Source of the DNA: Clostridium sp. | GTDB lineage: Bacteria > Bacillota > Clostridia > Clostridiales > Clostridiaceae | Direction of reading: 5' to 3' | Assembly: GCF_051656525.1 (NCBI RefSeq) | Contig: NZ_JBOGCC010000278.1 | Span: 22,112 to 86,111, forward strand | Length of the DNA: 64,000 bases | In this document: positions 38,748-63,003 of the stretch, piece after piece | Layout of the letters: each line of letters opens with the position of its first letter | Numbering within the stretch: position 1 is the first letter of the stretch | The notes under the pieces: model-generated | What the model was told of the DNA's origin: nothing | The model's database searches: none | What the model saw: only the letters and a program-made list of their open reading frames with translations | Made by a program: the position numbers and the translations under genes

Positions 38748-40082
38748 TCAATCGTAATCAAACAGGTTGACACCACCGCTACGGCGTTTGTCATTCCGGT
38801 CATCACGACGATCATCTCGGCGGTCACGGTCGTCGTAACGATCGCGGCTACCGAATCCATCACGCATGCGGTCACGGCGACCACGGTCATCATAACGATC
38901 ATCATCATCATAACGTCCGCGACGGTCACGGCGGTCATCATAACGGTCCCGACGGTCCCGACGATCACTATAGCGGTCATCGCGGTCATCACGATCGTCA
39001 CGACCACGACCATTAACTTCACGCAGATAATCATCATAATCGCTATCGCGGCGGTCACGTCGATCATCACGTAAACCACGGCGATCGCTATCACGTTCGC
39101 GGTCACGCTCTTTACTGTTTGTGCGATCCAGATCATCCAGTGATACGGTCTTACCACCGCGTGCTGCATTAGGTAAGTTATCTACGCGCTTGCCTGATTT
39201 TTCATCTTCAGTGTCGCGAATTGACTTAACATCAGTACCGGTGTTATCTTTCAGGTCTGGAATCATACGATGGTATTTACTGAAGTTGTCTTCGAGAAGA
39301 TCTTCGAACCATTCGGTATTGATTTGCGGTAAATCGATTGCCCCTTTGAACAACGCTGTGATGTTATTCAGTCGCTTGGTGATTGTTCGATGTGCTTCCA
39401 TCAATGCATGGAAATATGGTACAGTGTGGTTACTGCCAAATTCCAGCGGCATATCTTTGAAGATTTCCGTCAATAGATTGCGGAACATCTCCTTGTTGGC
39501 TTTCGAGTGCACGTTTACGCCGCACAGGATAGCACCCGGTTGCTCATCGCTAATGACTGGGATTTCAACAACGCACATACGTGCATACAGCACATCATCC
39601 AGCTTTTTGTTACGGTTCAGATAGATGCTAAACAAGCCATCATTTTCTGACATTTCTGTAACCAGCTTGGTCCACTTCTTAGCGGTATCGTCCTTCATAT
39701 CTTTGATGATGGTCAGGTACTTAATCGCTTCTGCTGACTTGATTGATTTTTGCTTTGCTGGATTCTTAGCCAGGTCAAACATGGCTTGGACAATCAGGTC
39801 CAAGCGCAGTGAGTTTGCAGCCAATACGCGACGAGTCAGGAAGTGAATCATCTTGGATTGGCCATGCAATGCATCTTCACATAACGGGTGGAAGAACACA
39901 GCATCTTTAAGATCGCGGGAGTCCAGGTTTTCTTCGGTCGGCAGATAAAGTTTACAGCCATCCACTTCAACGTGGTCATTGTTCTCATTCGGGAATAGCA
40001 CAGAGCCACGGTTCCCGATAACTAAGAACATGCCAGTCAACAGATTGGCATAATTGTTACAAATTTCTTGTTCCAGAGACAT
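38748..40082 (-). CDS. phiKZ gp70-like nucleus-block protein with a ~125-aa Arg/Asp-rich C-terminal tail
   Basis: Directly downstream of the picA-position gene; tail of DRRDRR/DDR/YDDR repeats. Confidence 0.7.
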   Translation of the reverse strand: MSLEQEICNNYANLLTGMFLVIGNRGSVLFPNENNDHVEVDGCKLYLPTEENLDSRDLKDAVFFHPLCEDALHGQSKMIHFLTRRVLAANSLRLDLIVQAMFDLAKNPAKQKSIKSAEAIKYLTIIKDMKDDTAKKWTKLVTEMSENDGLFSIYLNRNKKLDDVLYARMCVVEIPVISDEQPGAILCGVNVHSKANKEMFRNLLTEIFKDMPLEFGSNHTVPYFHALMEAHRTITKRLNNITALFKGAIDLPQINTEWFEDLLEDNFSKYHRMIPDLKDNTGTDVKSIRDTEDEKSGKRVDNLPNAARGGKTVSLDDLDRTNSKERDRERDSDRRGLRDDRRDRRDSDYDDYLREVNGRGRDDRDDRDDRYSDRRDRRDRYDDRRDRRGRYDDDDRYDDRGRRDRMRDGFGSRDRYDDRDRRDDRRDDRNDKRRSGGVNLFDYD

Positions 40083-40085
40083 CTA

Positions 40086-41591
40086 TTATTCCTCGTTCCA
40101 GCGGTTGTACTTCCGCTCTCCATATTTTTCATCATCGCCCTTGTGGAAAACTTGTTTATCTACGAATTCCTTGGACAGGTGGTGATACTGCTTCGCGTTG
40201 TCGTACGTGTTTTCTGCCTCGTACGATGTTGTGGTACCGAAGATACCAGTCATTGATGCTGGATAACGGAACTCCTCTGGCGCGTTGTTCTCGTATTCCA
40301 TTTCGATTTCAATCTGGCCGCCAATCGCAGCTGATACACGAATGTATACATAACGACGGTTTCTATCGCTGATGCGATCGTACACCTCGCCAAGAATGCG
40401 GCGAAGACAAGCCTGAGCCATGATATCGCTCGTATCGATATTTGATACTGCTGCGAAATCGTCGATTGACATTTCAGGCTTGCCATCAATAAGCTGGTCA
40501 TTGTCAATTGTAAATGACAGCTGCGCCAACTTATAGTCATTCATCATAGATGGAATTTCTTGGCAAGCGATTGCCAGCGAACGCATCTTAGATGACTTAC
40601 CGTAGAATTCGCGGGAGATATAAGAGATATCATTACCAGCAATTGGCATGATTACTGTAATGTCTTGCAGGTCTTCAATGATTGGATTGCGAACATCCAT
40701 CATATCAACCCAGTCACGATATTGGCAAATACCATTCTGTGTAACATCAGGATTGCGATTACCCAGGAATGAAATCAGACCACCTGCTAACTTATAGCGG
40801 TTGGTGTGGACCGAATAACTTGCCGACTGATAACGACTTTCGCCAAAGATGTCAGGGTTACGTAATGATTCTGCATACGTACGACTATCTGCCTCAGTAG
40901 CAGTATCTGAATCCAGAAGGTTGAACAGGAATGTTGAGCGGTTCAGCTCGCGCATGTCTGCCGCTTTGCCTTCCTTCATGAATGCGGAACCAGTCACGAT
41001 AATTTCACCGCGCTTGCGTGCCGTTTCCAAAGTATTGGAATGTTCCATATCGGTAAAGATTAAGATATCTTCAACACGACTGGTGTGGTGGCGATCGCGG
41101 CTAGAGTGGTCTTTGCGCTGTACCAGAATGATTTTAGAAACATCATAGTGTACATATTCATCGCCACGTTTATCGCGACGCATCGTTGTGCGATATTCAG
41201 TAATCTGGTTGATGTACATATCCAGACGATCATCGATATTAACCAGATCATCGTCATAAATCTCACCGGTAAATCCAGATACGAAGAATGAAATACCCGG
41301 CATGTTAACCGTACACTCTTCGAATTCTACCAGTGCGTGCCAGCGCATACGGCGCAAATCAACAGCGTCGCCATTGCGGCCAATACGCGGTGTATAAGAT
41401 GTATCCGACACATCCAGGCCGGCATTCAGAGTACGCGAGATCATATCGCGGTTTACTTTACCCTGTTCTTCATATTCTTCAGTCAGAGCATCGATCATAG
41501 ACTGGTCGAAGTTCATGATCATCGAGCGCTGTTCTGGTACTACCATATCGCGGATTTCCACGAACACAAGCTCACGCAGGGTTGGATGCAT
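40086..41591 (-). CDS. picA: Protein importer of chimalliviruses PicA/Imp1 (phiKZ gp69-like)
   Basis: 501 aa, immediately after the sigma-like nvRNAP subunit; assigned by conserved synteny, not by motif. Confidence 0.65.
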   Translation of the reverse strand: MHPTLRELVFVEIRDMVVPEQRSMIMNFDQSMIDALTEEYEEQGKVNRDMISRTLNAGLDVSDTSYTPRIGRNGDAVDLRRMRWHALVEFEECTVNMPGISFFVSGFTGEIYDDDLVNIDDRLDMYINQITEYRTTMRRDKRGDEYVHYDVSKIILVQRKDHSSRDRHHTSRVEDILIFTDMEHSNTLETARKRGEIIVTGSAFMKEGKAADMRELNRSTFLFNLLDSDTATEADSRTYAESLRNPDIFGESRYQSASYSVHTNRYKLAGGLISFLGNRNPDVTQNGICQYRDWVDMMDVRNPIIEDLQDITVIMPIAGNDISYISREFYGKSSKMRSLAIACQEIPSMMNDYKLAQLSFTIDNDQLIDGKPEMSIDDFAAVSNIDTSDIMAQACLRRILGEVYDRISDRNRRYVYIRVSAAIGGQIEIEMEYENNAPEEFRYPASMTGIFGTTTSYEAENTYDNAKQYHHLSKEFVDKQVFHKGDDEKYGERKYNRWNEE

Positions 41592-43206: not shown

Positions 43207-43818
43207 TTAAAAGTCCATCACTTCATCAAAAGTCATGCCTGCTGGCTGTGGTGCTTGCTGGCCATATTGACGTTGGCCACCGCCTTGTCCGCCATTCTGA
43301 CCAGGCTTATAAGCGCGCTCTTCTGCGGTCTTATAAGAGTTGTTCCATGCTACCGGCAACATCTGAGCAATGTTTTCAAACCACGCCATAAACAGATCAT
43401 AAGAGATCTCGTTATCCGGCACAACCTGACCGTTTTCCATCATCGCAAACTTAACGTTTGGAATGAACAGATGTTTAACGGAACCACCGCGAGTATCTTT
43501 ACCGCCGATGTATGCAACGCCGTCGTCGCCAATACCGAAAGCTACCATGCCATAGTTTTGGTTATCGCGGCCTTTTTTGCAGTTAAGTGCTACGTTAACG
43601 TTACGATCTTCCGGCTTCCACTTCTTCACGCGGTTGTAAATAATGCGGAAGTAATCCAGTGTGATATCAATGTTCAGAAAATCGTTACCTACTTTGGTAC
43701 CGAGCTGCAAACAGTTGTTCCAAAGTGAAACACGGAGGCGCATGGTTTTGCCACCGTCGATCTTGGCGATTGGTTTGAATGCGTTTTCGTCCAGATAATT
43801 CTTTTTGATGTCAGACAT
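43207..43818 (-). CDS. chmC: Nucleus-associated RNA-binding protein ChmC (phiKZ gp67-like)
   Basis: 203 aa, beta-rich core plus a G/Q-rich disordered tail; lies immediately upstream of the sigma-like gene. Confidence 0.6.
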   Translation of the reverse strand: MSDIKKNYLDENAFKPIAKIDGGKTMRLRVSLWNNCLQLGTKVGNDFLNIDITLDYFRIIYNRVKKWKPEDRNVNVALNCKKGRDNQNYGMVAFGIGDDGVAYIGGKDTRGGSVKHLFIPNVKFAMMENGQVVPDNEISYDLFMAWFENIAQMLPVAWNNSYKTAEERAYKPGQNGGQGGGQRQYGQQAPQPAGMTFDEVMDF

Positions 43819-47435: not shown

Positions 47436-48968
47436 TTATCCCCGTTTATTTGCTTCGCTCAAACAATGGGCGCGATAGTTATTAATCAAACTAATTGTCT
47501 CAGGGTGTAAGACAATACTGCTTGAAACTTCGAACGGTCTTGTTAAGCTCATCATACCATTGGATGGTTCGAGTGCACTATATGTATCCAGATCAAACTG
47601 GTCCATAATCAACTTACATTGCGTCATATCACCATCGAAATCCGCATTCGGATTCTTGATGATAAGGTTACTGATACGCATTGCATAGATATGGGGATCT
47701 GTAAACACATCAGTGATACGTAACAGCTGGTTAGAAAGCATCTCCAGCGTTGGGTTACGCAACATTGCCATTGGGATTCCGTGGCCTACCAAACTATTGT
47801 TGATAAACCATTTCAGAATATCATGCATCTGTTCATCATAATTACAGATACAGTGATCAATGTATTTCGACATCCGTTTTGGTGTCATGTTAAATGGTGG
47901 TTGTAGCAAATGACCTTCGATGTGATTTCGAAGCATTACTACCAGCCATGACCATGGAACAGTCACCTCGTCGTATTCATGCGCTCCGATATGTGGTATG
48001 ATTACCACACGACCGGACCAAGGCGTTCGTGTCGCACCTAATTGCCGACGAAACAATCCATATTTACCTGACGTCGTTTCGCGAACGAAATCAACGTAGA
48101 AATCTGACATCTTGCTTTGCACATCGACCAGTTTGCTATTCAAGCGAGCTGGGCTCAGTGGTCGGAGTGAATTCTCCAAACCAGCAATTGTCTTTGCTGC
48201 ATCAATCGCATGCAGCATTGTAGGATCTGCGAATGTGTTGCCGCCGCTTTGCTCAGTAACCATTGCCCATTTGGATGGGTATGGCATATACTTACAATAC
48301 GCTGCCTCATTCTCAATATCCAGCAATTCCAAGAACTCTTCCATTTTCTTGGTTGGTCGAACACGGGCACGTTTGTTGCTATACAGAATCTTAATGAATT
48401 CTGGTGTCAGCAATTTACGAAACACAGACTTAAATGTTTTCAAGTCGCGTGTAACATAAGACAAACTTCTCTCTTCCACGATTCCGTCGATATAACGCAT
48501 TAACGCGTGAAACTTCGACGATTCCGAAAGCGTTGGGCGATAACGCGCATCTGTCAGATAACGCAAGATGTCGAAATCTTTTGCGTTACTGAAGTTTGCG
48601 TTGAACCGCACCCAGAATATCGGGTTAATGAAACGACCAGCCGGATTTCTAAACCATACATGTGATTCGAAATCTTGGCCCATCACTCGCTTTACTACCG
48701 GGTCTGAGCATTTCGGATTCTGACAAGTTTGACCTTCATTAAACTTGCCTGACAATTCACCACACCCGCACGTTGGTGTAATGTCTAATGCATCGCCATT
48801 GTAATGCACACGTGTCAAATCGTTCAGGACTTTTACCGCATCAGAAGTAGAACACCCCTCAACTACATCATTTACAACAATCGGGTTTCTCTTTAATGAT
48901 CGAAACTCTTTAGATAGGTCGATCAATTCCAGTGCAGCGCCACGATTCATTCCATATCCCCTTGACAA
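47436..48968 (-). CDS. Non-virion RNA polymerase beta' N-terminal subunit (phiKZ gp55-like)
   Basis: Catalytic NADFDGD; N-terminal Zn finger CGCG...C...C; SGRVVI.P; LRNPTL. Confidence 0.96.
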   Translation of the reverse strand: MSRGYGMNRGAALELIDLSKEFRSLKRNPIVVNDVVEGCSTSDAVKVLNDLTRVHYNGDALDITPTCGCGELSGKFNEGQTCQNPKCSDPVVKRVMGQDFESHVWFRNPAGRFINPIFWVRFNANFSNAKDFDILRYLTDARYRPTLSESSKFHALMRYIDGIVEERSLSYVTRDLKTFKSVFRKLLTPEFIKILYSNKRARVRPTKKMEEFLELLDIENEAAYCKYMPYPSKWAMVTEQSGGNTFADPTMLHAIDAAKTIAGLENSLRPLSPARLNSKLVDVQSKMSDFYVDFVRETTSGKYGLFRRQLGATRTPWSGRVVIIPHIGAHEYDEVTVPWSWLVVMLRNHIEGHLLQPPFNMTPKRMSKYIDHCICNYDEQMHDILKWFINNSLVGHGIPMAMLRNPTLEMLSNQLLRITDVFTDPHIYAMRISNLIIKNPNADFDGDMTQCKLIMDQFDLDTYSALEPSNGMMSLTRPFEVSSSIVLHPETISLINNYRAHCLSEANKRG

Positions 48969-49020: not shown

Positions 49021-51156
49021 TTACCAGCGTGCGTTACGGGTACGGCTATGGTTGTCGCGGTCGCCACGACCACGACGATCGCTGCTACGACGATTGTTGC
49101 GGCCAGCGCCACGCATTTCGTCATAACGCAGACCGTAGTGTGCTGATGCACGTTCGCCACGACGGCCGCGTACTTCATCACGGTCACGGTTAACCTGAAG
49201 CTCCATATTTGCACGATGGAATGCTGCATAGCACGCTTCCATGAACAGTGGATCGAAGATCATTACGGTGCAGATGCCGGTCATCTTGAAGGTATCACCG
49301 GACAGATGCTTGTAAAGATCCAGCGCAATGCCAACACGCTCATCATTGGACAGGCCACTTGTAGAGCTGTGTGCACGGATATAATCATCCAGACGCTGGG
49401 TATCGCGATCTTGGAACTTAGACGCTGCGAACCAGTGGTCCAGTCGAGTAACCGGTTGTGGGCCATTGTTGGTCATGTAGTGACCATCCGGCAGGCTGAA
49501 TGCAGCTGCGATTACATCACGACCTTTCAGACGATCGAATTCGTCGGTGAAGTAATTGTTTGTTGCATCGTCCAACAGATCAAACAGGTGCTCACGCGCT
49601 ACGTTGCTACGATCTTCGTAGATGTCGCGCAGCAGCTCACCGAATGATGAACCAGGCATGCCTTCGTTATAACGGTATGCGAATTCCATGCCCAGGCTAT
49701 GGCGAACCAGTCGCTTCAGAACTTCGAAGACTTGTTGATCATCTTCTGGGTTCTCCATGTCCAGTTTACCCGGCTCAACGGATGCCTGTGGATCCATCAG
49801 GTAGCCCAGATCGCGGATGTCGCGGTCACGGCTGCTGAACGCGGTTGGCATAAAGCAGCGGAAGTAGCGATATGCTTTATCCAGGTTAACTGCGATGGAT
49901 GCAGCAATCATGCTACGTACCATTGGACCAGCTGATTCTTCTTCACGATACACGTCGATTTCGCTGAAGACCATTCGTGGCAGGAGGCATGCCAGATTGT
50001 GGTCTTTGCTACGATCATCACGAGTAGAGTCTGGTGACTCAACCGGCAGCAGGTCGATATAACCACTTGCTGTTGCCCACTGTGCCTGAGAGGTGTTATC
50101 AATCAGGGAAGTTGAACGGTTGTTACCAGTCTGTGAAGTTTCCAGTGAGATGGAAATGTCGTTACGGATTGGCAGACCTGCATAACCAGCTACGTCGGAA
50201 GTACCGACGATGCCGATGATGCCTTCCAGCTTGATGCCGTCTGCTTTGAAATCAGCATCGAACAGCTCGCGAGTCAGGCCGGCCGCAGTCAGGATGTAAT
50301 CAGTTGCGGTACCCAGAATTGGTAGGATCTCGTCAACGGTATCCAGAGACACGCCGTGTGACAGGACTACATAACCGCAGTAACGCATATCGCTGATGCT
50401 CAGTGCGCTATGCAGGCTGCACAGAGTCTCTTCGACAGAAGTCAGAGTCTTGTCATCCAGCTGCTCGCCCATTGAGATATATTCGCGAATTTCATCGCGG
50501 TCACGACGACGATCGTTGTTACGACGAGTTACTTCGCGAACGGTAGATTCGCGGTTCTCTACCACAATCAGTGAGTAGTAGAACTTCGGATCGTTATCGA
50601 ATGTACCGACGGTTGCCAGCAGAGACACTGGACCCAGGTTTTCCATACCCGGAATTGGGAAGGTTTTAATTGCTTCTTCCTGCATCTTAGCGAGCTGGTT
50701 GGAAGAGTTAGCTTTCTTCCACTCTTGGTGCAGTTGGTTGAAGCGGTTCACGCGCTGGTTGTTGCGTGAAGAACTGTATGCGTTACCGATGTTCAGGTTC
50801 ATTCGTGGTTTATCCTCGAAAGTTTCTTTCTTATCTTTAGCGCGTGTGCGCTCTTCTTCTTCGCGCTCTTCGCGCTCACGGCGTTCACGGTCTTCACGAT
50901 CGCGACGTGCATTTTCACGCTCACGCTCACGGCGTTCACGGCGTTCTTCATCGCTATCACGACGTTCACGGCGTTCATCGCGATCATCACGTTCGCGACG
51001 GTCGCGACGGTCTTCACGGCTGTCTTCACGGCGATCGCGACGGTCTTCGCGACGCTCTTCACCACCAGTGGTTTCTTGACCTTCAGTCTTTCCTTCTTCA
51101 ACCTGCGCGTTGTTGGAGGTTACTTCTGTTTCAGTAGCACGGCGCTTGATACCCAT
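49021..51156 (-). CDS. chmA: Chimallin, the phage nuclear shell protein (phiKZ gp54-like), with an R/D/E-rich N-terminal extension
   Basis: 711 aa, immediately upstream of nvRNAP beta'-N and near DNA pol, which is the chmA position; disordered termini, ends RW. Confidence 0.8.
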   Translation of the reverse strand: MGIKRRATETEVTSNNAQVEEGKTEGQETTGGEERREDRRDRREDSREDRRDRRERDDRDERRERRDSDEERRERRERERENARRDREDRERREREEREEEERTRAKDKKETFEDKPRMNLNIGNAYSSSRNNQRVNRFNQLHQEWKKANSSNQLAKMQEEAIKTFPIPGMENLGPVSLLATVGTFDNDPKFYYSLIVVENRESTVREVTRRNNDRRRDRDEIREYISMGEQLDDKTLTSVEETLCSLHSALSISDMRYCGYVVLSHGVSLDTVDEILPILGTATDYILTAAGLTRELFDADFKADGIKLEGIIGIVGTSDVAGYAGLPIRNDISISLETSQTGNNRSTSLIDNTSQAQWATASGYIDLLPVESPDSTRDDRSKDHNLACLLPRMVFSEIDVYREEESAGPMVRSMIAASIAVNLDKAYRYFRCFMPTAFSSRDRDIRDLGYLMDPQASVEPGKLDMENPEDDQQVFEVLKRLVRHSLGMEFAYRYNEGMPGSSFGELLRDIYEDRSNVAREHLFDLLDDATNNYFTDEFDRLKGRDVIAAAFSLPDGHYMTNNGPQPVTRLDHWFAASKFQDRDTQRLDDYIRAHSSTSGLSNDERVGIALDLYKHLSGDTFKMTGICTVMIFDPLFMEACYAAFHRANMELQVNRDRDEVRGRRGERASAHYGLRYDEMRGAGRNNRRSSDRRGRGDRDNHSRTRNARW

Positions 51157-51209
51157 TTTGTTTCGTCCTTTTATTACAGTTTAAGATTTATTGTGGCAGG
51201 TTCACATTG

Positions 51210-51219
51210 ATAAAATATG
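51210..51219 (-). promoter_or_regulatory. Variant early promoter CATATTTTAT upstream of chmA
   Basis: One mismatch to the 10-mer, preceded by an A7 tract on the minus strand. Confidence 0.5.
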
Positions 51220-52373: not shown

Positions 52374-53072
52374 TCAGCTATTCTCTTGAATATCAGGATG
52401 AATTGCTTCAATTGCTTCATGCAATATTCCTTGGTTGTGTTTTACACGATCCAAGTAATCTCCCCAGCTCTCGTTGCAGAAACGGATCACATTTGGGTTT
52501 GACATGCCTTGTGCATAATGATCTAAGCACAGCGGAACGTATAGTCCAATGTCTCCAACTACAACACTCTCGCCTTCGTAGACTACTGCACCGCTAGCAT
52601 CAACACGTGCGTTCTGTGTAGCTTTATCGCCGCACCAACACACAGTTTTCAGCTCTTCCAGACTTTCTGCTACGGCTAACAGTTTAGCGCTAGCCTCAAA
52701 CAAAGTCATAGAGAAATCGTTCTTCAGGCCATAGCACAATACCGGTGTATCATAAAGCTTAGCAATAACAACCAGCTCTTCTACTTGTTTCACAGTTAAG
52801 AACTGCGCTTCATCAATAAGGACTGCTTCAATCGGATCAACTACAGATTCCAGATACATATCCAGAACCGAGTCTCCTTTTCCAAGCATGATACAGTCGG
52901 TCTTTAATCCGACGCGTGAAGTGATAAAACCATCTTCATCGCGCGTATCTACTTTTGGTTTAAAGCGCAGCGTCTCCATGCCGCGCTGTTTGTAGTTGAA
53001 GCTGCATTGAATTAACGCGGTAGACTTACCGGAATTCATTGCACCATACTTGAAATAAATCTTTGCCATCAA
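52374..53072 (-). CDS. tdk: Thymidine kinase
   Basis: YGAMNSGKST, FKP.VDTR, LIDEAQFL, YGLKNDF, LKTVC.CG, Y.PLC..HY. Confidence 0.97.
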   Translation of the reverse strand: MMAKIYFKYGAMNSGKSTALIQCSFNYKQRGMETLRFKPKVDTRDEDGFITSRVGLKTDCIMLGKGDSVLDMYLESVVDPIEAVLIDEAQFLTVKQVEELVVIAKLYDTPVLCYGLKNDFSMTLFEASAKLLAVAESLEELKTVCWCGDKATQNARVDASGAVVYEGESVVVGDIGLYVPLCLDHYAQGMSNPNVIRFCNESWGDYLDRVKHNQGILHEAIEAIHPDIQENS

Positions 53073-55198
53073 TAGTAATCCGAAATTAGTTTATAACGTT
53101 TGTCGTTCATGCAATAGTAACCCAAGGATTCCAACATATGGTAATATGGTTCCATGGTACTAAAGATGAGCTTACGGAAGTTTGTCACATCCAGAATCTC
53201 TTTCGGGATCCCGTTCGATACAACAGTTTCTGGTAACATCAACTTGGTAAAGTTATCACGACCATGTTCGGTACAGAATCTTTCGATTAAGTTTCCGAGT
53301 TCACGATTCTTCATATCTGTCCACCATGCCTTCAATGCAGTTTTGTTTTCCAAATCTACAGGCAAATGCACAATACCGTACGGTGGTTCGCCCGGTGATG
53401 TATAGAAACGTGAGAATGTTGCTTCCCAGAACATATGGTAGAAATAAGCTGCTGACTCTGGCTTAGCATAACCTCCGCGGTCTTTTAGCTGGCCAGTCTT
53501 AAGATATGTCGTTTCACCGTTAGTAATCGATTCGCGAATATTACGTTCGATTTCTGCGATGTGTGCGAACAACTTAGTCAGTTCAATCTTTTCACCGATA
53601 CGAACTTTCAACAGACATTCCATAGTTGTTGCACGGAAGTCCATCATGATTTCGCGTGGAATGTTAGAGCTACGTAATACAACGCCCTTCATTTCCAGTT
53701 CTGGTTCGTGCTTAGCTGTACCTTCTTGGTTGGTAATCGCCGAGAAGTAGTGCTTAGCCTTATTAGTTAACGCAAATGCAGCGAATTTAAATTCGTTCTT
53801 CATTGCGTACTTAAATACCAGTCTTTCTACCACGCCCATGTTGGCTGACATCAATGCCATCATGTGCGCGATATTCTGAACCGCTATATAAGTTACTACG
53901 TCGGCAATTGCATCCGCATGATCGCCATATACGATTTCACCAAAATACCATTCTACCCACCACTGCGATGTAGCCATAGTGGAGTCGGTATCTGAAACCA
54001 GTGAAACGCGTCGTACGGTATCAGGCAAACGTGAGACAGAAGCCGGTACAATCTTAGTGAAGAATAACGGACGGAAGAAAGACAAGTGTCCTTCAATAAC
54101 TCCCATTAGGCGCTTGGCGCCGTTCATCACAATCTTGTAATCTTCTGGATTGTCTTCTTTTACTTTCTTTAAGTTTCTAGCGCCAATATACTTGCTATAC
54201 AGAAGTGACAACAGGATTTCAGTATCGCCATCCAGTCGTTTTTCCACGTCTGCATAATCATGCAGTGGCTTATCTTCCAACTCCATGATACTGCCGAGTA
54301 TTGGTCGGACAATCTCTGGGTTGAACTTAGCAACATGATACATGTCGCCGATATAAACAAATGCAGCACGTTCGTAATCGCTGAGTGTTTCAACGACTGC
54401 ACGAATCTCTGCGAATCCTTCGTTGTTCTCTTCTGGCCAGAACAGTCTGGTGGAGTGAAGGATTACTTCCATCGTTTCTTCGACTGTCGGGAATTTCAGT
54501 CGATACTTACGCATACAATCTTTGAACTCAACTTGGTCATAGATTGAAACGATGGCGTTGATATTATGGATTACGCACTCAGGAGAGAAGTAATGTCGTG
54601 TACCTGACAACATCTTCTCATTATTAGCATTACCGTATGCAGTTGCTGTACGGCAGATACTAGTAAGAGTACTGTGCTGGGTTGCGTTATGTAGGAATGT
54701 ACCTTTGGATACGTGTGCACCTGACAAAGAGTTGTTACGTGTTTTAAGCGAGGTTTGTTCGTTCTTCTTGTTACTCGCCAACACCATATTGCCTGCAGCT
54801 TCTGCAGCAGCCATTTCTTTCTTAACTTTGCCACGTGCCGCAACGTTTTCAACGATGAAGTTTGCAAGCAGTGATTCTTCTTCATCAGCACTAACATATG
54901 CTGTCATCGATGGTGAGAACATGAAGTTACACTTTCGAATAACTTCGAACATTCTCGATAATGGAATCGTTGTTCTTACACGGTCTCCGGTTTTTCTATC
55001 ACGCGCGTTGATTGTTACCGTACGGTCATTGTATTCAAAGTGCCCGCCCGGTTGCATCGCAATAGCCATTTGTTCTTTAATGAGTTCAATTGGCTGTTTA
55101 TACTTGCGAGCAAAGAACGCTGCTGTCTGTTCGAAATAACCTTTTAGGAAATCGTTATCTCGAATATAGTAGTCAATCGATCTTAAAAATAAGCTCAT
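53069..55198 (-). CDS. Family B DNA polymerase catalytic subunit (phiKZ gp50-like)
   Basis: KTRNNSLSG (motif B), SDTDS (motif C), KHY, EMKGV. Confidence 0.92.
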   Translation of the reverse strand: MSLFLRSIDYYIRDNDFLKGYFEQTAAFFARKYKQPIELIKEQMAIAMQPGGHFEYNDRTVTINARDRKTGDRVRTTIPLSRMFEVIRKCNFMFSPSMTAYVSADEEESLLANFIVENVAARGKVKKEMAAAEAAGNMVLASNKKNEQTSLKTRNNSLSGAHVSKGTFLHNATQHSTLTSICRTATAYGNANNEKMLSGTRHYFSPECVIHNINAIVSIYDQVEFKDCMRKYRLKFPTVEETMEVILHSTRLFWPEENNEGFAEIRAVVETLSDYERAAFVYIGDMYHVAKFNPEIVRPILGSIMELEDKPLHDYADVEKRLDGDTEILLSLLYSKYIGARNLKKVKEDNPEDYKIVMNGAKRLMGVIEGHLSFFRPLFFTKIVPASVSRLPDTVRRVSLVSDTDSTMATSQWWVEWYFGEIVYGDHADAIADVVTYIAVQNIAHMMALMSANMGVVERLVFKYAMKNEFKFAAFALTNKAKHYFSAITNQEGTAKHEPELEMKGVVLRSSNIPREIMMDFRATTMECLLKVRIGEKIELTKLFAHIAEIERNIRESITNGETTYLKTGQLKDRGGYAKPESAAYFYHMFWEATFSRFYTSPGEPPYGIVHLPVDLENKTALKAWWTDMKNRELGNLIERFCTEHGRDNFTKLMLPETVVSNGIPKEILDVTNFRKLIFSTMEPYYHMLESLGYYCMNDKRYKLISDYY

Positions 55199-56995: not shown

Positions 56996-57507
56996 TGTAT
57001 CTCCCCATCCACAGTTATATACCTGCGAGATAGATCAATATCCAAACCAGTGACTGATATTAAATCGAAGTTTCTTACTTCTTCGGTAATGATGTCAATC
57101 ACTTCTGAGAATATTCTATCTGCATCTCCAAGCAAGTCAATGAGCTTTCTAAATTTCTCTCTGAAATGTTCAGGGAAATCGATGCCATCTACATCGCTAT
57201 TGTCACAGGAATACTCTTCTATTAAATTATTCAAGAAGGCTTCAATCTTATCCGTAGTTTCCCTAACATAATCCAAATCCAGGTCCGGCGTCAGTCTATC
57301 AATTACTGCTAAGTGTAGCGAGTAATTAAAGAAGTCTGTTAATGCTTCTTGCATCATTGCCGTATCTTCTACTTCGTCATAATCATACATAGTCTTGGCT
57401 TCAGGGGCAAAGCCCCTGTCGCCCAAGTATACATTCTTGATGAAGAAAACCATGCACTTATGACGAGCTGCCCCGTACATAGGGATTATCAGTCGTCTTT
57501 CTGCCAT
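56992..57507 (-). CDS. Acidic hypothetical protein (array member)
   Basis: AGGA SD; D/E-rich. Confidence 0.75.
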   Translation of the reverse strand: MAERRLIIPMYGAARHKCMVFFIKNVYLGDRGFAPEAKTMYDYDEVEDTAMMQEALTDFFNYSLHLAVIDRLTPDLDLDYVRETTDKIEAFLNNLIEEYSCDNSDVDGIDFPEHFREKFRKLIDLLGDADRIFSEVIDIITEEVRNFDLISVTGLDIDLSRRYITVDGEIH

Positions 57508-57515
57508 AAAATATC

Positions 57516-58217
57516 CTAGTGTATTACACCGTGCGCTAACTCTTTTGGAACGAAAACAATGGAATATGTATCGGTTGGCAACGCGAAGAATATATCTAGT
57601 TGCGCACCCACGCCAATTCCAACTTCATCAGAAACAGTATATCCGTGATAAACACACTCTCTTGCGAAATCCCACCATTCGTCATTGGCGATCATTGCAT
57701 TGTAGTGCAAGATACATGTATCCAAAGAGTCAGCTATCGGATCGTGCTCGTCGAAATTAACAAGTTGTGTGGTTATTTCAACAACACCCGTAAGTAGTGT
57801 TTCAGCTTTATTACTCAGGAATTCACAGATGCGCTCACGAAAATCTAACTTCTCGCATTCTTCATCATTGAGTATTCCGGTCGCTAACAATAGCTTTGCA
57901 GCACGATCGTAAAGAGCCTCAGGAACAATATCGCGGTCTTTGCCGCGCTTGAAGCAATCCTTAGCATCTTTTGCACCGTTATTATACTGATCAGCTAACT
58001 CATAAATGAGCGCAGCAGCGACGGTGTCTAGTGCGCTAACCATCGCCATTGCATAAACATTGATCAGCATCTGAGTTATTTCAGTAAATCCGGTCGTTGT
58101 TCCGAACCTGCTCTCTAATCGAATAGACACGTCTGCAAGTGCGCACTTGGATAAGTAATAATCCTCGTTCTCAACATGCATAAACAGGGTTAATTGTGGG
58201 ACCTCAGTCGTACTCAA
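57516..58217 (-). CDS. Acidic hypothetical protein (array member)
   Basis: 233 aa, overlaps the upstream stop. Confidence 0.75.
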   Translation of the reverse strand: MSTTEVPQLTLFMHVENEDYYLSKCALADVSIRLESRFGTTTGFTEITQMLINVYAMAMVSALDTVAAALIYELADQYNNGAKDAKDCFKRGKDRDIVPEALYDRAAKLLLATGILNDEECEKLDFRERICEFLSNKAETLLTGVVEITTQLVNFDEHDPIADSLDTCILHYNAMIANDEWWDFARECVYHGYTVSDEVGIGVGAQLDIFFALPTDTYSIVFVPKELAHGVIH

Positions 58218-59245: not shown

Positions 59246-59679
59246 TTTGCCATCCTCATATCAACAACAATACAATAGCGAGAATATTCTGCTTCTCTTA
59301 TCTGGATATCTGTGAAATCGTAATCTCTCAGAACATCTTCCAGATATGTGTACAACCGAACATATCCAGATGTCGTAATAATTCGCTCCATGATTACACG
59401 ACATGCTGAGATTGCATCGATGATGTCACGTGGTCGATCGTTTTGATCTTCTTCCATTTTCTCGCTAACGGTTTCATTGATCTCACCAATTACTGATGTT
59501 ACCAAATCCAAGCTGAATGGTGCACGTGAGTTAATATCTTCTATGGCTTGCATTACTGACCATACCCACAGATCTGCGAAGTCGATACACGATGGCCGTT
59601 TACTGGCATTGCGTGATATCTCGTCAATCAACGAGTCAACTTCGTCGCGTTCCATGTAGATGCGCAATTCTTTATTCAT
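59242..59679 (-). CDS. Acidic hypothetical protein (array member)
   Basis: AAGG SD; ATGA overlap. Confidence 0.75.
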   Translation of the reverse strand: MNKELRIYMERDEVDSLIDEISRNASKRPSCIDFADLWVWSVMQAIEDINSRAPFSLDLVTSVIGEINETVSEKMEEDQNDRPRDIIDAISACRVIMERIITTSGYVRLYTYLEDVLRDYDFTDIQIREAEYSRYCIVVDMRMAK

Positions 59680-60038
59680 TTTACATACCTTATTAGCCCA
59701 GATAGTTCCGCACAGAACATATCTGCACCTTCTTTAAAATCAACTATATCCAAATCGCCGCAGATTACGTTTTTGCCTACGCCAGATAGCACTAGCTTTC
59801 GAGTAACTCGATGTATGTCCATATATACATCACGCAAGCCAGGGATATCTCGTGTATCTGTTTCCATCTGGAACTTAGCGTATTCTGACGGGGTGACATT
59901 TAGCCAGAACTCAATCACGTCTCTCATCAGTAGATAGTGATCTGGAATTGAAATCCCATGTATGACGGATAATGAGTTGAGTGTCTCGTGACAATCCTCT
60001 CGAGATAACTGCACGTTTAGTGGTATCGCGTTTTTCAT
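59676..60038 (-). CDS. Hypothetical protein (array member)
   Basis: Probable start MKNAIP; overlaps the upstream ORF by about 128 nt. Confidence 0.6.
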   Translation of the reverse strand: MKNAIPLNVQLSREDCHETLNSLSVIHGISIPDHYLLMRDVIEFWLNVTPSEYAKFQMETDTRDIPGLRDVYMDIHRVTRKLVLSGVGKNVICGDLDIVDFKEGADMFCAELSGLIRYVK

Positions 60039-60762
60039 CTTTCGGCTTTCCACGATGTGTTGCTTTAAGACGTTTAATTTCGGCGATAGTCTGTTCGTCC
60101 ATCTTGGAGTATTCGAATTTCTCTTTAAGGATGAATGAATCTAAGATATCGCGTTCCGTAAGAAGGAATACACGCTCACCTGATTTATCGTAGCGATTCG
60201 CGTAATTGGTCACTTCTACATCATCAATGTACGTATCGCAATTGTTCTTATAAACATCCTCGTCCATTTCCGGGGTGATTGTATCCGAAACAAAGAACGG
60301 GTCGTTAACGATTAGAGGTTCTTCCTTCTTAAACTCACGTGCTTCCACACGACCAACACCAAACATTCGAGTATATGCAATGATGCGATAATCGCCAGAA
60401 GATACCATCGATAGTACGCTACCTACTGTTAGATATTGTACGGCATCCCAGCGTTCATGATAACGTGCAAGGATTGATTTACATTCTTCGTAAATGATTT
60501 TACACCATTCCAGCGATGGGCGTGTGCCGATACGCTGCATAATTGGCGGTGTAATTGTCATATCGTCCAAACCATCGATAGCTTCCAGGAAGTAATCAAT
60601 ATCACGAACATTTGGAATCGATAGAAAATAATCTTTGAACGCGAAGTCCATGAAGTACACAAGGCCATTGGTAACATAGCCATAGTGGCAGAATAAATCT
60701 CCGTACTCGTGACTGATTCGTTCAGCTTCTGCATTAAGATATACTCGCGAGACATCAAGCAT
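59911..60762 (-). CDS. Hypothetical protein
   Basis: Start moved to MLDVSR, overlapping the upstream stop. Confidence 0.7.
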   Translation of the reverse strand: MLDVSRVYLNAEAERISHEYGDLFCHYGYVTNGLVYFMDFAFKDYFLSIPNVRDIDYFLEAIDGLDDMTITPPIMQRIGTRPSLEWCKIIYEECKSILARYHERWDAVQYLTVGSVLSMVSSGDYRIIAYTRMFGVGRVEAREFKKEEPLIVNDPFFVSDTITPEMDEDVYKNNCDTYIDDVEVTNYANRYDKSGERVFLLTERDILDSFILKEKFEYSKMDEQTIAEIKRLKATHRGKPKDEKRDTTKRAVISRGLSRDTQLIIRHTWDFNSRSLSTDERRD

Positions 60763-61057
60763 TTTCAATATTCCCATATATTCTAAAAGTATTTTTACCG
60801 GCCTGTACAACATTAACTATTTCGATACACGGCTCGAGTACAAATGTGTTGTATATTGACTTAATGATCCGATCTCTAATATATCCACTTCTACGATCCC
60901 ACTGGTCATTACAGAGTTCTATGTTGTGCGCCCAGGAACATTCTGAAGAGAATACATATCCGATTGCATTTAAGCCACACACGACGTCATCTACATCGCA
61001 TATAACATCATGCAGATCCTCTAGTCTAAACTGATAGACGTATCTACGTCGTGTCAT
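60755..61057 (-). CDS. Hypothetical protein (first gene of the array)
   Basis: GAGG SD; follows the promoter motif. Confidence 0.75.
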   Translation of the reverse strand: MTRRRYVYQFRLEDLHDVICDVDDVVCGLNAIGYVFSSECSWAHNIELCNDQWDRRSGYIRDRIIKSIYNTFVLEPCIEIVNVVQAGKNTFRIYGNIENA

Positions 61058-61084
61058 AATGTTTTCCTCACAATGCTCACAACT

Positions 61085-61094
61085 ATAATATATG
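61085..61094 (-). promoter_or_regulatory. Putative early promoter CATATATTAT heading the acidic array
   Basis: Exact motif copy. Confidence 0.65.
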
Positions 61095-61167
61095 TCTATA
61101 GTTGCTTACAAAGCAATACATATCCAGTCGTTTTTTAAAACTTCGTATGAATCCAACAGGAGGACAT

Positions 61168-61998
61168 ATGGATCTTTTCAATAATGCAGTACAATTTGTA
61201 CTCAATAACGACATCCCAAAACGCATCTTAGAAGATGCATTTCTGCCAGATAAACACTCAAATCAGCGTAATCGTTCGCTCACAGATTGCATTATTGAGC
61301 GAGTTATTCGCAATAAAGTGATGCCAGATTTGAGCAGAATCGGTGGTACTTTGATCGATATTCCACTGTATGAATGTCCATTCTCATACGACGATACACT
61401 CAATTATCGCTACCATCGCATCTATGAAATCGATGCAAAATACACCCAAAATCGTCCAATTTATTCAGTGCTCAGAGCCTACAATAACGGCGTAATTTCA
61501 GCTACTGCAGGCATGACTCCATTCAATGCTGGGTACTCAACTTATCAGACTTCTACCGTCGATGAGATGATGTCAAAGCAAATTATGTCAAGAGATCGGA
61601 TGGTCAAGTTCTCCGATGCCGATATAGAGGTCGTAGGGCCATTCTCGCTGCGTGTAACCAACACAATAATGCTAGCCTACAACTTAACCTTAGAATGCCG
61701 TATAGGCTATTCTAGCGAGTTTCACGAGCTAATGCCTCCATACCACCATGAATTCAATTTATTGGTGGATTTAGCAGTTAAGTCATATATCTACCGCGAA
61801 CTCCGTTTAGACATCGATATGTTTAAACTTGACGGTGGACGTGAACTCGGCGTTTACAAAGATTACGTAGACAGCTATTCCAATGCTTCCAGCGATTACC
61901 AGGAACAGATTAGCAAGCGCTGGCGTAAGCTTCTGATTCTGGGTGATGCTCGTCGTGCTAAGAAAGCTGACTGGAACGCTGGCATGGTAACTGTTTAA
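61168..61998 (+). CDS. Virion structural protein, possible neck/head-tail connector
   Basis: Start moved to MDLFNN (AGGAGG SD); C-terminal LAVKSYIY...G...Y..A...Y.E...W resembles neck proteins. Confidence 0.55.
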   Translation: MDLFNNAVQFVLNNDIPKRILEDAFLPDKHSNQRNRSLTDCIIERVIRNKVMPDLSRIGGTLIDIPLYECPFSYDDTLNYRYHRIYEIDAKYTQNRPIYSVLRAYNNGVISATAGMTPFNAGYSTYQTSTVDEMMSKQIMSRDRMVKFSDADIEVVGPFSLRVTNTIMLAYNLTLECRIGYSSEFHELMPPYHHEFNLLVDLAVKSYIYRELRLDIDMFKLDGGRELGVYKDYVDSYSNASSDYQEQISKRWRKLLILGDARRAKKADWNAGMVTV

Positions 61999-62020
61999 AG
62001 ACAAATAAAAATTAGGAACC

Positions 62021-62044
62021 GCTCTGGGGCTTTCGCCCCAGAGC
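62021..62044. terminator. Strong hairpin/terminator
   Basis: gctctggggc-tttc-gccccagagc, 10-bp perfect stem (GAAA loop on minus strand). Confidence 0.8.
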
Positions 62045-62566
62045 TTTCCATTATACGCCGAATGATCTAACATCGGCAAGCGATATCTAAACCGCTTTAT
62101 GGGATCGTCGCATTTTATGCAATCTGCGTTACGACGATCGTCCCACCATACCAGCCCAGGCTGTACTCGCATTGCTTTCCAGGTTGCTCTAGCACGGTAG
62201 CTTGGCGCCGGCTGTTGTTATTTCGGACTCTCGTTGGGCTGTGTCTACGCTACTCAATTCGGTATCTGTCATAGCTATGGGGAGGCGCTCTGACTAAATC
62301 CATTATGACGCGTTCAGGGATAACAAGAATAACAACAACCAGCATTAGGTCGCCAACCACGCCAATAGTCATCCGGTCAGAGACTTCTATGGAGTGGCAT
62401 GGTCGGCAGATAAGCACGCCTTTCAACATCCGTATTGAGAGGCGTAAGGGGAATTGCGCTCGGAATGATCTCACAACCGATTCAGTTACAATGAGTGTGC
62501 GCTGATTGTTATTGAATTGGTTCGGTTGTGTGTTCGTGCACATGAACTATAACCCAGTTATTTTTT
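62045..62566. ncRNA. Possible structured non-coding RNA (~520 nt, strand unresolved)
   Basis: No convincing ORF; many hairpins and long-range or crossing pairings found by eye. Confidence 0.35.
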
Positions 62567-63003
62567 ACATGGTTTTAAGTTTACGTATAAATGTAACTCG
62601 TCGGCTCGGCTCGCTGGCCGGCGCGACGCTTATGTAAATACTCAAAAGCTTACTGTTGAATTCTAGTGAATATATACCATGTAATTTATTCCTGGTATTT
62701 AACTATTCTCACTTGAAACATATTCCATGTTAAAAATTATATATTAGGAATTCCCCAAGAATTCCGTCTAAACTAACCTAAATAATCTGGTTTTCCTGAG
62801 ATAAACTCAGGGAAAACCTTAAATCCTGTAAAAAATTACATGTATATTATATTTATATGTAGAAAATTAAGGTGTTGGGGGAGGGGGGGTCGAAAGAGAA
62901 AGATTTATATAACTATATCTTTTATTCGACTTTTTTTTAACAGGGTTCAAAAACGGCAAAAAAAAATGAAATTCCCCGGTTAGGGGGAACTTCAAGAAAT
63001 TTG

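Follow-up and report, generated by a model that had tools for sequence, protein, structure and literature searches.

Chimallin (ChmA), the major shell protein of the phage nucleus, is described from phages 201phi2-1 (gp105) and Goslar (gp189) (PDB 7SQQ-7SQV; Laughlin et al. 2022, PMC9365700). In the 201phi2-1 protein, an unresolved N tail (residues 1-47) is followed by a segment that docks on the neighbouring subunit (NTS, residues 48-61), an N-terminal domain (62-228), a C-terminal domain (229-581) and the segments CTS1 (590-611) and CTS2 (622-631), which are separated by a linker (PMC9365700). Another shell-associated protein, ChmC (PhiPA3 gp61/PhiKZ gp67), has a low-complexity tail, N/G-rich and ending in an acidic patch, that drives the formation of condensates in vitro (PMC11077065). 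In eukaryotes, the R-MCDs (mixed-charge domains rich in arginine) of nuclear speckles are near-neutral, use R and not K in runs that alternate with D/E, and are usually paired with RNA-recognition motifs; their R/D repeats condense in a length-dependent manner, R-to-K substitution abolishes condensation and added negative charge blocks it (Greig et al., bioRxiv 10.1101/771592). Here we describe chmA of an uncultured chimallivirus known from a metagenome-assembled contig. The gene lies at positions 49021-51156, on the minus strand, of a 64,000-nucleotide stretch of contig NZ_JBOGCC010000278.1 (hereafter the window), and its 711-aa product begins with a long tail made largely of arginine, glutamate and aspartate. 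By sequence comparison, every chimallin carries a variable N tail of low complexity, and the extension is this tail enlarged to an extreme in one clade.

An initial annotation, made from the letters alone, had named the protein a chimallin, and this identity was confirmed with profile and structure searches. PHROG profiles matched residues 47-656 of the 711-aa protein as 'nuclear shell protein' (phrog_4795, E=6.5e-20). The profile of the ten-sequence clade that contains the window protein was aligned by hhalign with a profile of nine named chimallins (201phi2-1, PhiKZ, Goslar, RAY, RSL2, pVp-JHP1101, Eowyn, sm033 and Yong XC31) at 99.95% probability (E=1.6e-37, 532 columns). An AlphaFold model built from a shallow alignment was poor (mean pLDDT 52.8); the nine best Foldseek matches of this low-confidence model in the PDB were all chimallins (Goslar, 201phi2-1 and PhiPA3; E 3e-19 to 2e-14; TM-score to target 0.55-0.63), no other match fell below E=0.04 and acetyltransferases trailed far behind. 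The Foldseek result supports a two-domain fold, with an alpha/beta N-terminal domain and a GNAT-like C-terminal domain. A profile search of PDB sequences also matched Goslar chimallin (E=2e-4). Other searches returned little: a Pfam scan of the window protein, a phmmer search of the single sequence against PDB sequences and a megablast against phage records gave no match, and tblastn reached six distant records only. Nine metagenomic relatives (686-714 aa, 41-72% identity) carry a precomputed PF25677 annotation, and in our own Pfam scan one of them scored 26.0 bits against the family cut-off of 27. Assembly of a nucleus shell by the window protein is predicted from its membership of the family.

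The window protein, at ~14% identity, shares the two-domain fold of the 201phi2-1 and Goslar chimallins and, by prediction, their order of parts, which runs from N tail and NTS through the N-terminal domain and the acetyltransferase-like C-terminal domain to CTS1, a linker and CTS2. In the hhalign register, window residue 134 stands opposite 201phi2-1 residue 69 and window residue 687 opposite residue 617, so that the alignment takes in CTS1. An I-G-x-x-[F/Y] motif, as in residues 48-61 (the NTS) of 201phi2-1, starts just past Met119. The register and the motif together place the N tail at residues 1-118 (50803-51156; this and all further features of chmA are on the minus strand) and the NTS approximately at residues 119-133 (50758-50802), the boundaries of the latter being inferred. 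The N tail is thus 118 aa of R/E/D character against 47 aa of Q/T/A/P-rich sequence in 201phi2-1 (~2.5 times as long). It has a charged fraction of 0.74 and a net charge of about -3 and is predicted to be disordered or partly helical: the model gives pLDDT below 50 at residues 1-42 and a helix at residues 40-105 with pLDDT 54-66. Since the extension lies upstream of the predicted NTS, it is probably not itself one of the lattice-contact segments. The initial annotation had referred to chimallin termini as the makers of the lattice contacts; removal of residues 1-47 from the 201phi2-1 protein had no effect on assembly (PMC9365700).

Charged arginine-rich stretches recur further along the protein, and the internal and C-terminal R/D patches reported earlier were found as quoted. 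The internal loop (residues 211-222; 50491-50526) is conserved in the clade as a R/K-S-D-R-R-D-R-R-R-G-R type and lies within a low-confidence region of the model (residues 203-231); charged loops occur at a similar place in the chimallins of pVp-JHP1101 and Eowyn. A motif R-D-R-D-E-x-R-G-R-R-G (residues 657-667; 49156-49188) occupies invariant columns of the clade alignment at the end of the C-terminal domain and the start of CTS1, opposite 201phi2-1 residues ~585-597. The C tail (residues 668-711; 49024-49155) is predicted to comprise CTS1, a linker that is rich in R/D and roughly double the length of its 201phi2-1 counterpart, and CTS2. With 13 R and 6 D/E, it has a net positive charge (+0.16 per residue). 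The C-terminal R/D patch makes up its residues 689-701, and it ends in a Trp, an aromatic C-terminal residue being common to the named chimallins, 201phi2-1 and Goslar among them.

The centre of the N tail is an arginine-enriched mixed-charge block at residues 35-103 (50848-51054). Its extent agrees exactly with the ~70-aa extension first reported; the block proved to be the core of the 118-aa N tail and not a free-standing insert. Its 69 residues comprise 32 R, 21 E, 12 D and no K, which gives a charged fraction of 0.94 and a net charge of about -1. Charges are very evenly mixed: the charge-segregation parameter kappa is 0.035, against 0.10 for shuffled sequences, and lies below 94% of the shuffles. 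The block thus has the sequence features of an R-MCD (R and not K, 33 D/E, near-zero net charge, good mixing, a length of tens of residues). This likeness may indicate a possible way of working, not homology, the speckle domains being eukaryotic and non-homologous, and any condensation in the phage is putative. R/D-type mixed-charge windows are rare in this material: they were found in only three open reading frames (ORFs) of the whole 3.7-Mb assembly, all on the 117.8-kb phage contig, the remaining mixed-charge ORFs of the bin being K/E-rich.

Because residues 69-103 are R/E-rich and AlphaFold draws residues 40-105 as a single helix, the E-rich half of the block might form a rigid ER/K-type single alpha-helix of ~10 nm that holds something off the shell. 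We consider such a spacer improbable. The helix has a pLDDT of just 54-66, opposite-charge pairs at i/i+3 and i/i+4 are not enriched in the block (53 observed against 58.9 +/- 5.4 in 2000 shuffles), the first half is Asp-rich, which disfavours a helix, and in relatives a good part of the block has given way to sequence that contains A/P/S/T and is non-helical. The missing enrichment and the Asp-rich first half leave the ER/K assignment unsupported. At the DNA level, Tandem Repeats Finder detected only short imperfect arrays of 9, 12 and 30 nt under the block and no clean tandem repeat. ORFs of 97-126 aa in other frames overlap the block on both strands (50699-51137), with Ser/Arg-rich, Val/Ala/Lys-rich or His-rich products; these are most likely artefacts of the repetitive low-complexity stretch and should not be annotated as genes.

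To place the tail within the family, 1.84 billion cluster representatives were searched with a profile, which yielded 168 chimallin clusters; 150 cluster representatives together with named phages made up a survey set of 153 full-length chimallins. The window N tail has the highest balanced-charge score of the set (0.95, runner-up 0.75). The length of the protein, which had been noted as unusual, is so against a median of 628 aa; in the set it is equalled only by RAY gp222, also 711 aa, and exceeded only by proteins of 758 and 854 aa. About 13 sequences combine balanced-charge N tails with Arg-rich C tails, and nearly all rank as the closest relatives of the window protein by profile search. 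This group takes in RSL2 (an R/E N tail and an R/D/Y C tail ending in R-W), with pVa-21/pVp-JHP1101 and KpLz-2_45 as weaker members. In the wider mixed-charge subfamily the tails measure 40-70 aa, and they are enlarged to 98-124 aa in the window clade. The mixed-charge flavour of the tail defines, on sequence composition, a chimallin subfamily that includes cultured phages. A literature search found, in the library covered, no paper linking chimallin with mixed-charge or arginine-rich tails, and a 2025 review on phages that form a nucleus does not take up tail charge.

RSL2 gp223 and the chimallins of pVa-21 and pVp-JHP1101, the last two being the nearest named relatives on the tree, resemble the window protein in having N tails of a mixed-charge R/E(K,D) type and C tails rich in arginine, and these phages also encode gp70-like proteins with R/D tails; their N tails, however, are ~40-50 aa long, identity to the window protein is ~20-22% and the charged fraction of the first 60 residues is 0.37-0.43 compared to 0.62. 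Erwinia phage RAY gp222 (711 aa) and the Proteus phage 10 protein (705 aa) reach a similar length through an N tail of ~100 aa of low complexity and are likewise accompanied by gp70-like proteins with long tails of matching flavour, but their N tails are Gln/Pro/Met-rich and uncharged.

A start codon downstream of the repeat would have left the charged stretch outside the protein, and for this reason the DNA of eight clade genes was examined (the window gene and L002, L004, L005 and L008-L011). Firstly, the N-tail frame is open for 90-124 codons up to the first internal ATG in all eight, whilst the other frames contain 1-23 stops. Secondly, the proportion of nonsynonymous changes in the tail is lower than that of synonymous changes (pN < pS), with dN/dS of ~0.3-0.6 compared to 0.15-0.2 in the core (dS is near saturation). 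Thirdly, the clade alignment has a conserved N-terminal M-[SG]-[IL]-K start and an E-E-R-R motif, and a Shine-Dalgarno (SD)-like AAGGA (51166-51170) stands 9 nt upstream of the annotated ATG, with a duplex free energy (dG) of -5.3 with the anti-SD sequence. A mis-called start, with translation truly beginning at M119 behind its good SD and the block serving as an untranslated leader, is very improbable on these grounds. By these sequence measures the N tail is coding and under relaxed purifying selection. Its properties also hold across the clade: the N tails of ten members are 98-124 aa long, with a charged fraction of 0.43-0.74 and a net charge per residue between -0.06 and 0.00, and a long mixed-charge N tail is combined with an R/D C tail in nine of the nine metagenomic relatives. 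The steady near-zero net charge looks like a constraint on neutrality.

The same genes contain a candidate second start. M119 (50800-50802), at the boundary of the N tail and the NTS, is the first internal in-frame ATG and is preceded at a distance of 10 nt by an SD-like GAGGA (50813-50817; dG -5.9, within the top 1.8% of gene positions). All eight clade genes have their first internal ATG at this boundary, 3-10 codons ahead of the NTS. The SD-like motifs before these boundary ATGs have duplex energies of -3.9 to -8.5 kcal/mol (-5.3 or lower in seven of eight), equal in strength to those of the annotated starts, and rank within the top 0.4-11% of positions per gene and the top 2-10% within the tail. 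A dG of -5.3 or lower is reached by 62% of 45 likely gene starts of the window compared to 6.9% of random positions. Furthermore, the motifs occur in differing peptide contexts, and the distant short-tailed members of the subfamily are mostly without the boundary Met. The arrangement is suggestive only, a hint at a tail-less isoform of ChmA. Such a product would match the 201phi2-1 construct lacking residues 1-47, which assembles normally, and a chimallin beginning at the NTS could be made alongside the full-length protein, with the ratio of the two starts setting the density of tails. We regard two isoforms as possible yet doubtful, and as compatible with the surface role proposed for the tail below. 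Lys/Glu/Gly codons near the end of the tail yield AAGGAG-like strings unaided, the eight genes are related and amount to ~5 independent contexts, and other chimallins often have a Met or another hydrophobic residue close to the NTS, perhaps for structural reasons.

The second protein with an R/D tail is encoded in the window beside an import gene, as had been reported. A PhiKZ gp70-like protein (38748-40082, minus strand; phrog_3520, E=3.4e-57) carries an R/D mixed-charge C-terminal tail of ~130 aa (38763-39152, minus strand), with 43 R and 42 D. It adjoins a homologue of the protein importer PicA/Imp1 (40086-41591, minus strand; phrog_3141, E=3.2e-27); tblastn of this PicA candidate gave no match and it was placed through phrog_3141 instead. 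A ChmC/Imp6-family protein with a G/Q-rich tail is encoded at 43207-43818 (minus strand; phrog_3284, E=3.6e-12). The same profiles also match named phage genomes: phrog_3141 matches PhiKZ 59640-61199 (gp69, which is Imp1; bioRxiv 10.1101/2024.03.27.586873) and 201phi2-1 68325-69851, phrog_3520 matches PhiKZ 61264-62580, directly after gp69, and phrog_3284 matches PhiKZ 57159-57890, the position of gp67 (ChmC/Imp6). From these placements, the window retains the PhiKZ order gp67-gp68-gp69-gp70, and the succession of PicA/Imp1 and gp70-like genes is the same in 12 annotated phages.

The initial annotation had tied the ChmA extension to the gp70 tail. A word-seeded protein search collected 118 gp70-like homologues, all of them R/D-tailed, but shared R/D words bias the collection of candidates in such a search and the result was rejected as a sign of universality. 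When tblastn was run with the N-terminal domain of the gp70-like protein only, the gene was found in 219 phage records, with Q/M/P tails in many lineages. Chimallin and gp70-like protein were then paired in 18 lineages, the partner for RSL2 being the database protein RSL2 gp211; SPFM2 (SPN3US-like) was left out because it gave no phrog_4795 match. R/D gp70-like tails (R+D 47-71% of the last 100 aa) characterise seven lineages (the window, RSL2, pVa-21, pVp-JHP1101, PhiEaH1, Moabite and KpLz-2_45), and Q/M/P/G/A tails (R+D 10% or less) the other eleven (PhiKZ, PS119XW, 201phi2-1, Noxifer, RAY, Proteus phage 10, AgentSmith, Eowyn, Goslar, sm033 and Yong). In the last 40 residues of ChmA, Arg amounts to 12-38% in the former group compared to 0-12% in the latter. 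Across the 18 lineages, the R+D content of the gp70 tail correlates with the charged fraction of the first 60 residues of ChmA (Spearman 0.86) and with R in the ChmA C tail (0.78), and the Q/M/P/N contents of the two proteins are correlated as well (0.71). The longest Q-rich ChmA tails, those of RAY and Proteus phage 10, are paired with the longest Q/M/P gp70 tails. A simple proteome-wide bias is unlikely to account for this, since the ChmC-family protein of the same operon has a G/Q tail and only three proteins of the contig are of the R/D type.

Part of the proposed co-occurrence thus stood, in that the flavours of the two tails track each other over the 18 lineages, and part did not, as the association is not exclusive and reflects only two to three switches. 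The shared flavour holds as a cross-lineage pattern in the sequences compared, with too few switches to establish co-evolution. The description of the locus as the best candidate for an undescribed system was likewise overstated, given that the extension is an extreme variant of a tail present in every chimallin and that R/D gp70 tails are found in the cultured phages RSL2, pVa-21, PhiEaH1, Moabite and KpLz-2_45.

Combined, these observations lead us to favour, tentatively and with a probability that we put somewhat short of even, a reading in which the enlarged N tail forms a solvated, cohesive polyampholyte layer on the shell and holds tails of like flavour there. Lying outside the lattice contacts, the tail would hang off the assembled shell, and its likeliest job would be to retain such tails through multivalent Arg-Asp/Glu contacts, as R-MCDs do in nuclear speckles. 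The candidate partners would be the R/D tail borne by the gp70-like protein, whose gene adjoins that of PicA, and the third R/D protein of the same contig; keeping unassembled ChmA soluble might be a secondary job. The speckle-like layer, the pore gating and the RNA binding by the tail that were first proposed would all be extrapolations from composition; a cohesive speckle-like surface layer is the most attractive functional reading among them, and we infer it from the sequence grammar and from the correlation with gp70.

Several points weigh against this layer. Deletion of residues 1-47 in 201phi2-1 left both in vitro assembly and incorporation into the shell unchanged (PMC9365700). Polyampholytes as well mixed as the block (kappa 0.035) are usually soluble and expanded, not cohesive, and little confidence attaches to the structure model (pLDDT 52.8). 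The N tail may leave from either face of the shell, and the layer is a prediction from sequence. As for the proposed partner, PhiKZ gp70 did not co-purify with Imp1 and has no assigned function or localisation (bioRxiv 10.1101/2024.03.27.586873). Moabite and PhiEaH1 have R/D gp70 tails and ordinary ChmA N tails, so that a gp70 tail of this kind can do without the extension on ChmA. Lastly, the R/D class needs only two changes on the ChmA tree (bootstrap range 2-3) and may have a single origin; with two to three switches underlying the correlation, ancestry confounds it and naive p-values overstate independence.

In a serious rival, the tail arose by neutral low-complexity expansion through replication slippage in a region tolerant of nearly any hydrophilic sequence, is harmless, and resembles the gp70 tail through ancestry or mutational bias. 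We give this explanation a substantial but minor share of the probability. The short imperfect 9-, 12- and 30-nt repeats under the block are compatible with slippage, the N tail changes at 2-3 times the rate of the core, and the 201phi2-1 deletion was without phenotype; the Q-rich tails of RAY and Proteus phage 10 reach equal length with different chemistry, and independent switches of flavour are few on the ChmA tree. Mere drift fits less well with a length kept at 98-124 aa and a net charge that strays no more than 0.06 from zero across ten proteins sharing only ~40% identity, with pN < pS in the tail, with the use of R to the near exclusion of K, or with an R/D flavour confined to three proteins whilst the ChmC tail of the same operon differs.

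A role of the arginine-rich tails as binders of mRNA or DNA of the phage at its shell, perhaps in aid of export, would suit the positive C tail, the need for mRNA to cross the shell and the RNA condensates formed by ChmC (PMC11077065). We think it distinctly improbable: the N tail is neutral to slightly negative in ten of ten relatives, the C tail is the predicted counterpart of the CTS1/CTS2 region, which docks in the lattice, and known shells are negative on both faces, which is thought to prevent DNA from sticking.

The cohesive layer can be extended to the family as a whole. The phage nucleus would then bear a flavour-matched disordered coat that recruits the gp70 tail, and a small number of further tails, by cohesion of like with like; some lineages would use arginine/acid mixed-charge chemistry and others Gln/Met/Pro, and in the long-tailed clade the second start would make tail-less ChmA and thereby tune the density of tails. 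Taken with all its parts, this extended proposal is speculative and, in our judgement, unlikely.

The surroundings of chmA are those of a chimallivirus. A DNA polymerase gene (53069-55198) precedes it, with thymidine kinase on the same side, and an RNA polymerase beta-family gene (47436-48968), a subunit of the non-virion RNA polymerase, follows directly downstream, as in 201phi2-1 and Goslar; the same order is found in the relatives and in named phages. A one-mismatch copy of the promoter-like motif CATATATTAT lies upstream of chmA (51210-51219, minus strand). This weak motif was given little weight as a promoter, since copies with at most one mismatch are not enriched (13 found, 8.2 expected).

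The window ChmC-family protein differs in tail chemistry from the window ChmA. Its G/Q-rich tail ends in a short acidic patch, like the published ChmC tail and unlike the R/D flavour. Among the PhiKZ-type gp70 homologues, gp268 of Pseudomonas phage Churi (L020:1417-2796) is annotated 'Med15 subunit of mediator complex protein', a label almost certainly produced artefactually by its Q/M-rich tail of low complexity. The third R/D protein (626 aa) is encoded outside the window at C278:11041-12918 (L046:1039-2919, minus strand), next to a polymerase-family gene (phrog_2943), and contains an internal R/D stretch of ~110 aa (residues ~120-235); comparison with PHROG profiles, tblastn against phage records and a large protein search yielded no match or homologue for it. 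On another contig, a 118-aa ORF (C323:9163-9519; L047:664-1020, plus strand) encodes D/R/E/L repeats of the D-R-x-x-D-R type and has no PHROG match. Proteins encoded on the remaining contigs of the bin are rich in K/E/I/N, as is typical of a low-GC organism, whereas the phage contig has ~45% GC. It may have been binned with this assembly by co-abundance, and the host assignment is provisional.

Cryo-EM does not resolve the chimallin N tail, whose removal gave no phenotype in the one deletion made, and gp70 is a core gene beside the importer PicA/Imp1. The tail chemistry common to ChmA and the gp70-like protein in 18 lineages merges these two unknowns into one hypothesis, and cultured phages carry each flavour (RSL2, pVa-21 and Moabite on one side; PhiKZ, RAY and Goslar on the other). 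If the flavour-matched coat exists, it would give a joint function to the N tail and to the core gene gp70 at the locus of import and export. Should the tails not cohere, they would represent a well-documented case of lineage-specific low-complexity drift; a surface layer that did cohere would give bacterial viruses a counterpart to the disordered selective phases known from the nuclei of eukaryotes.

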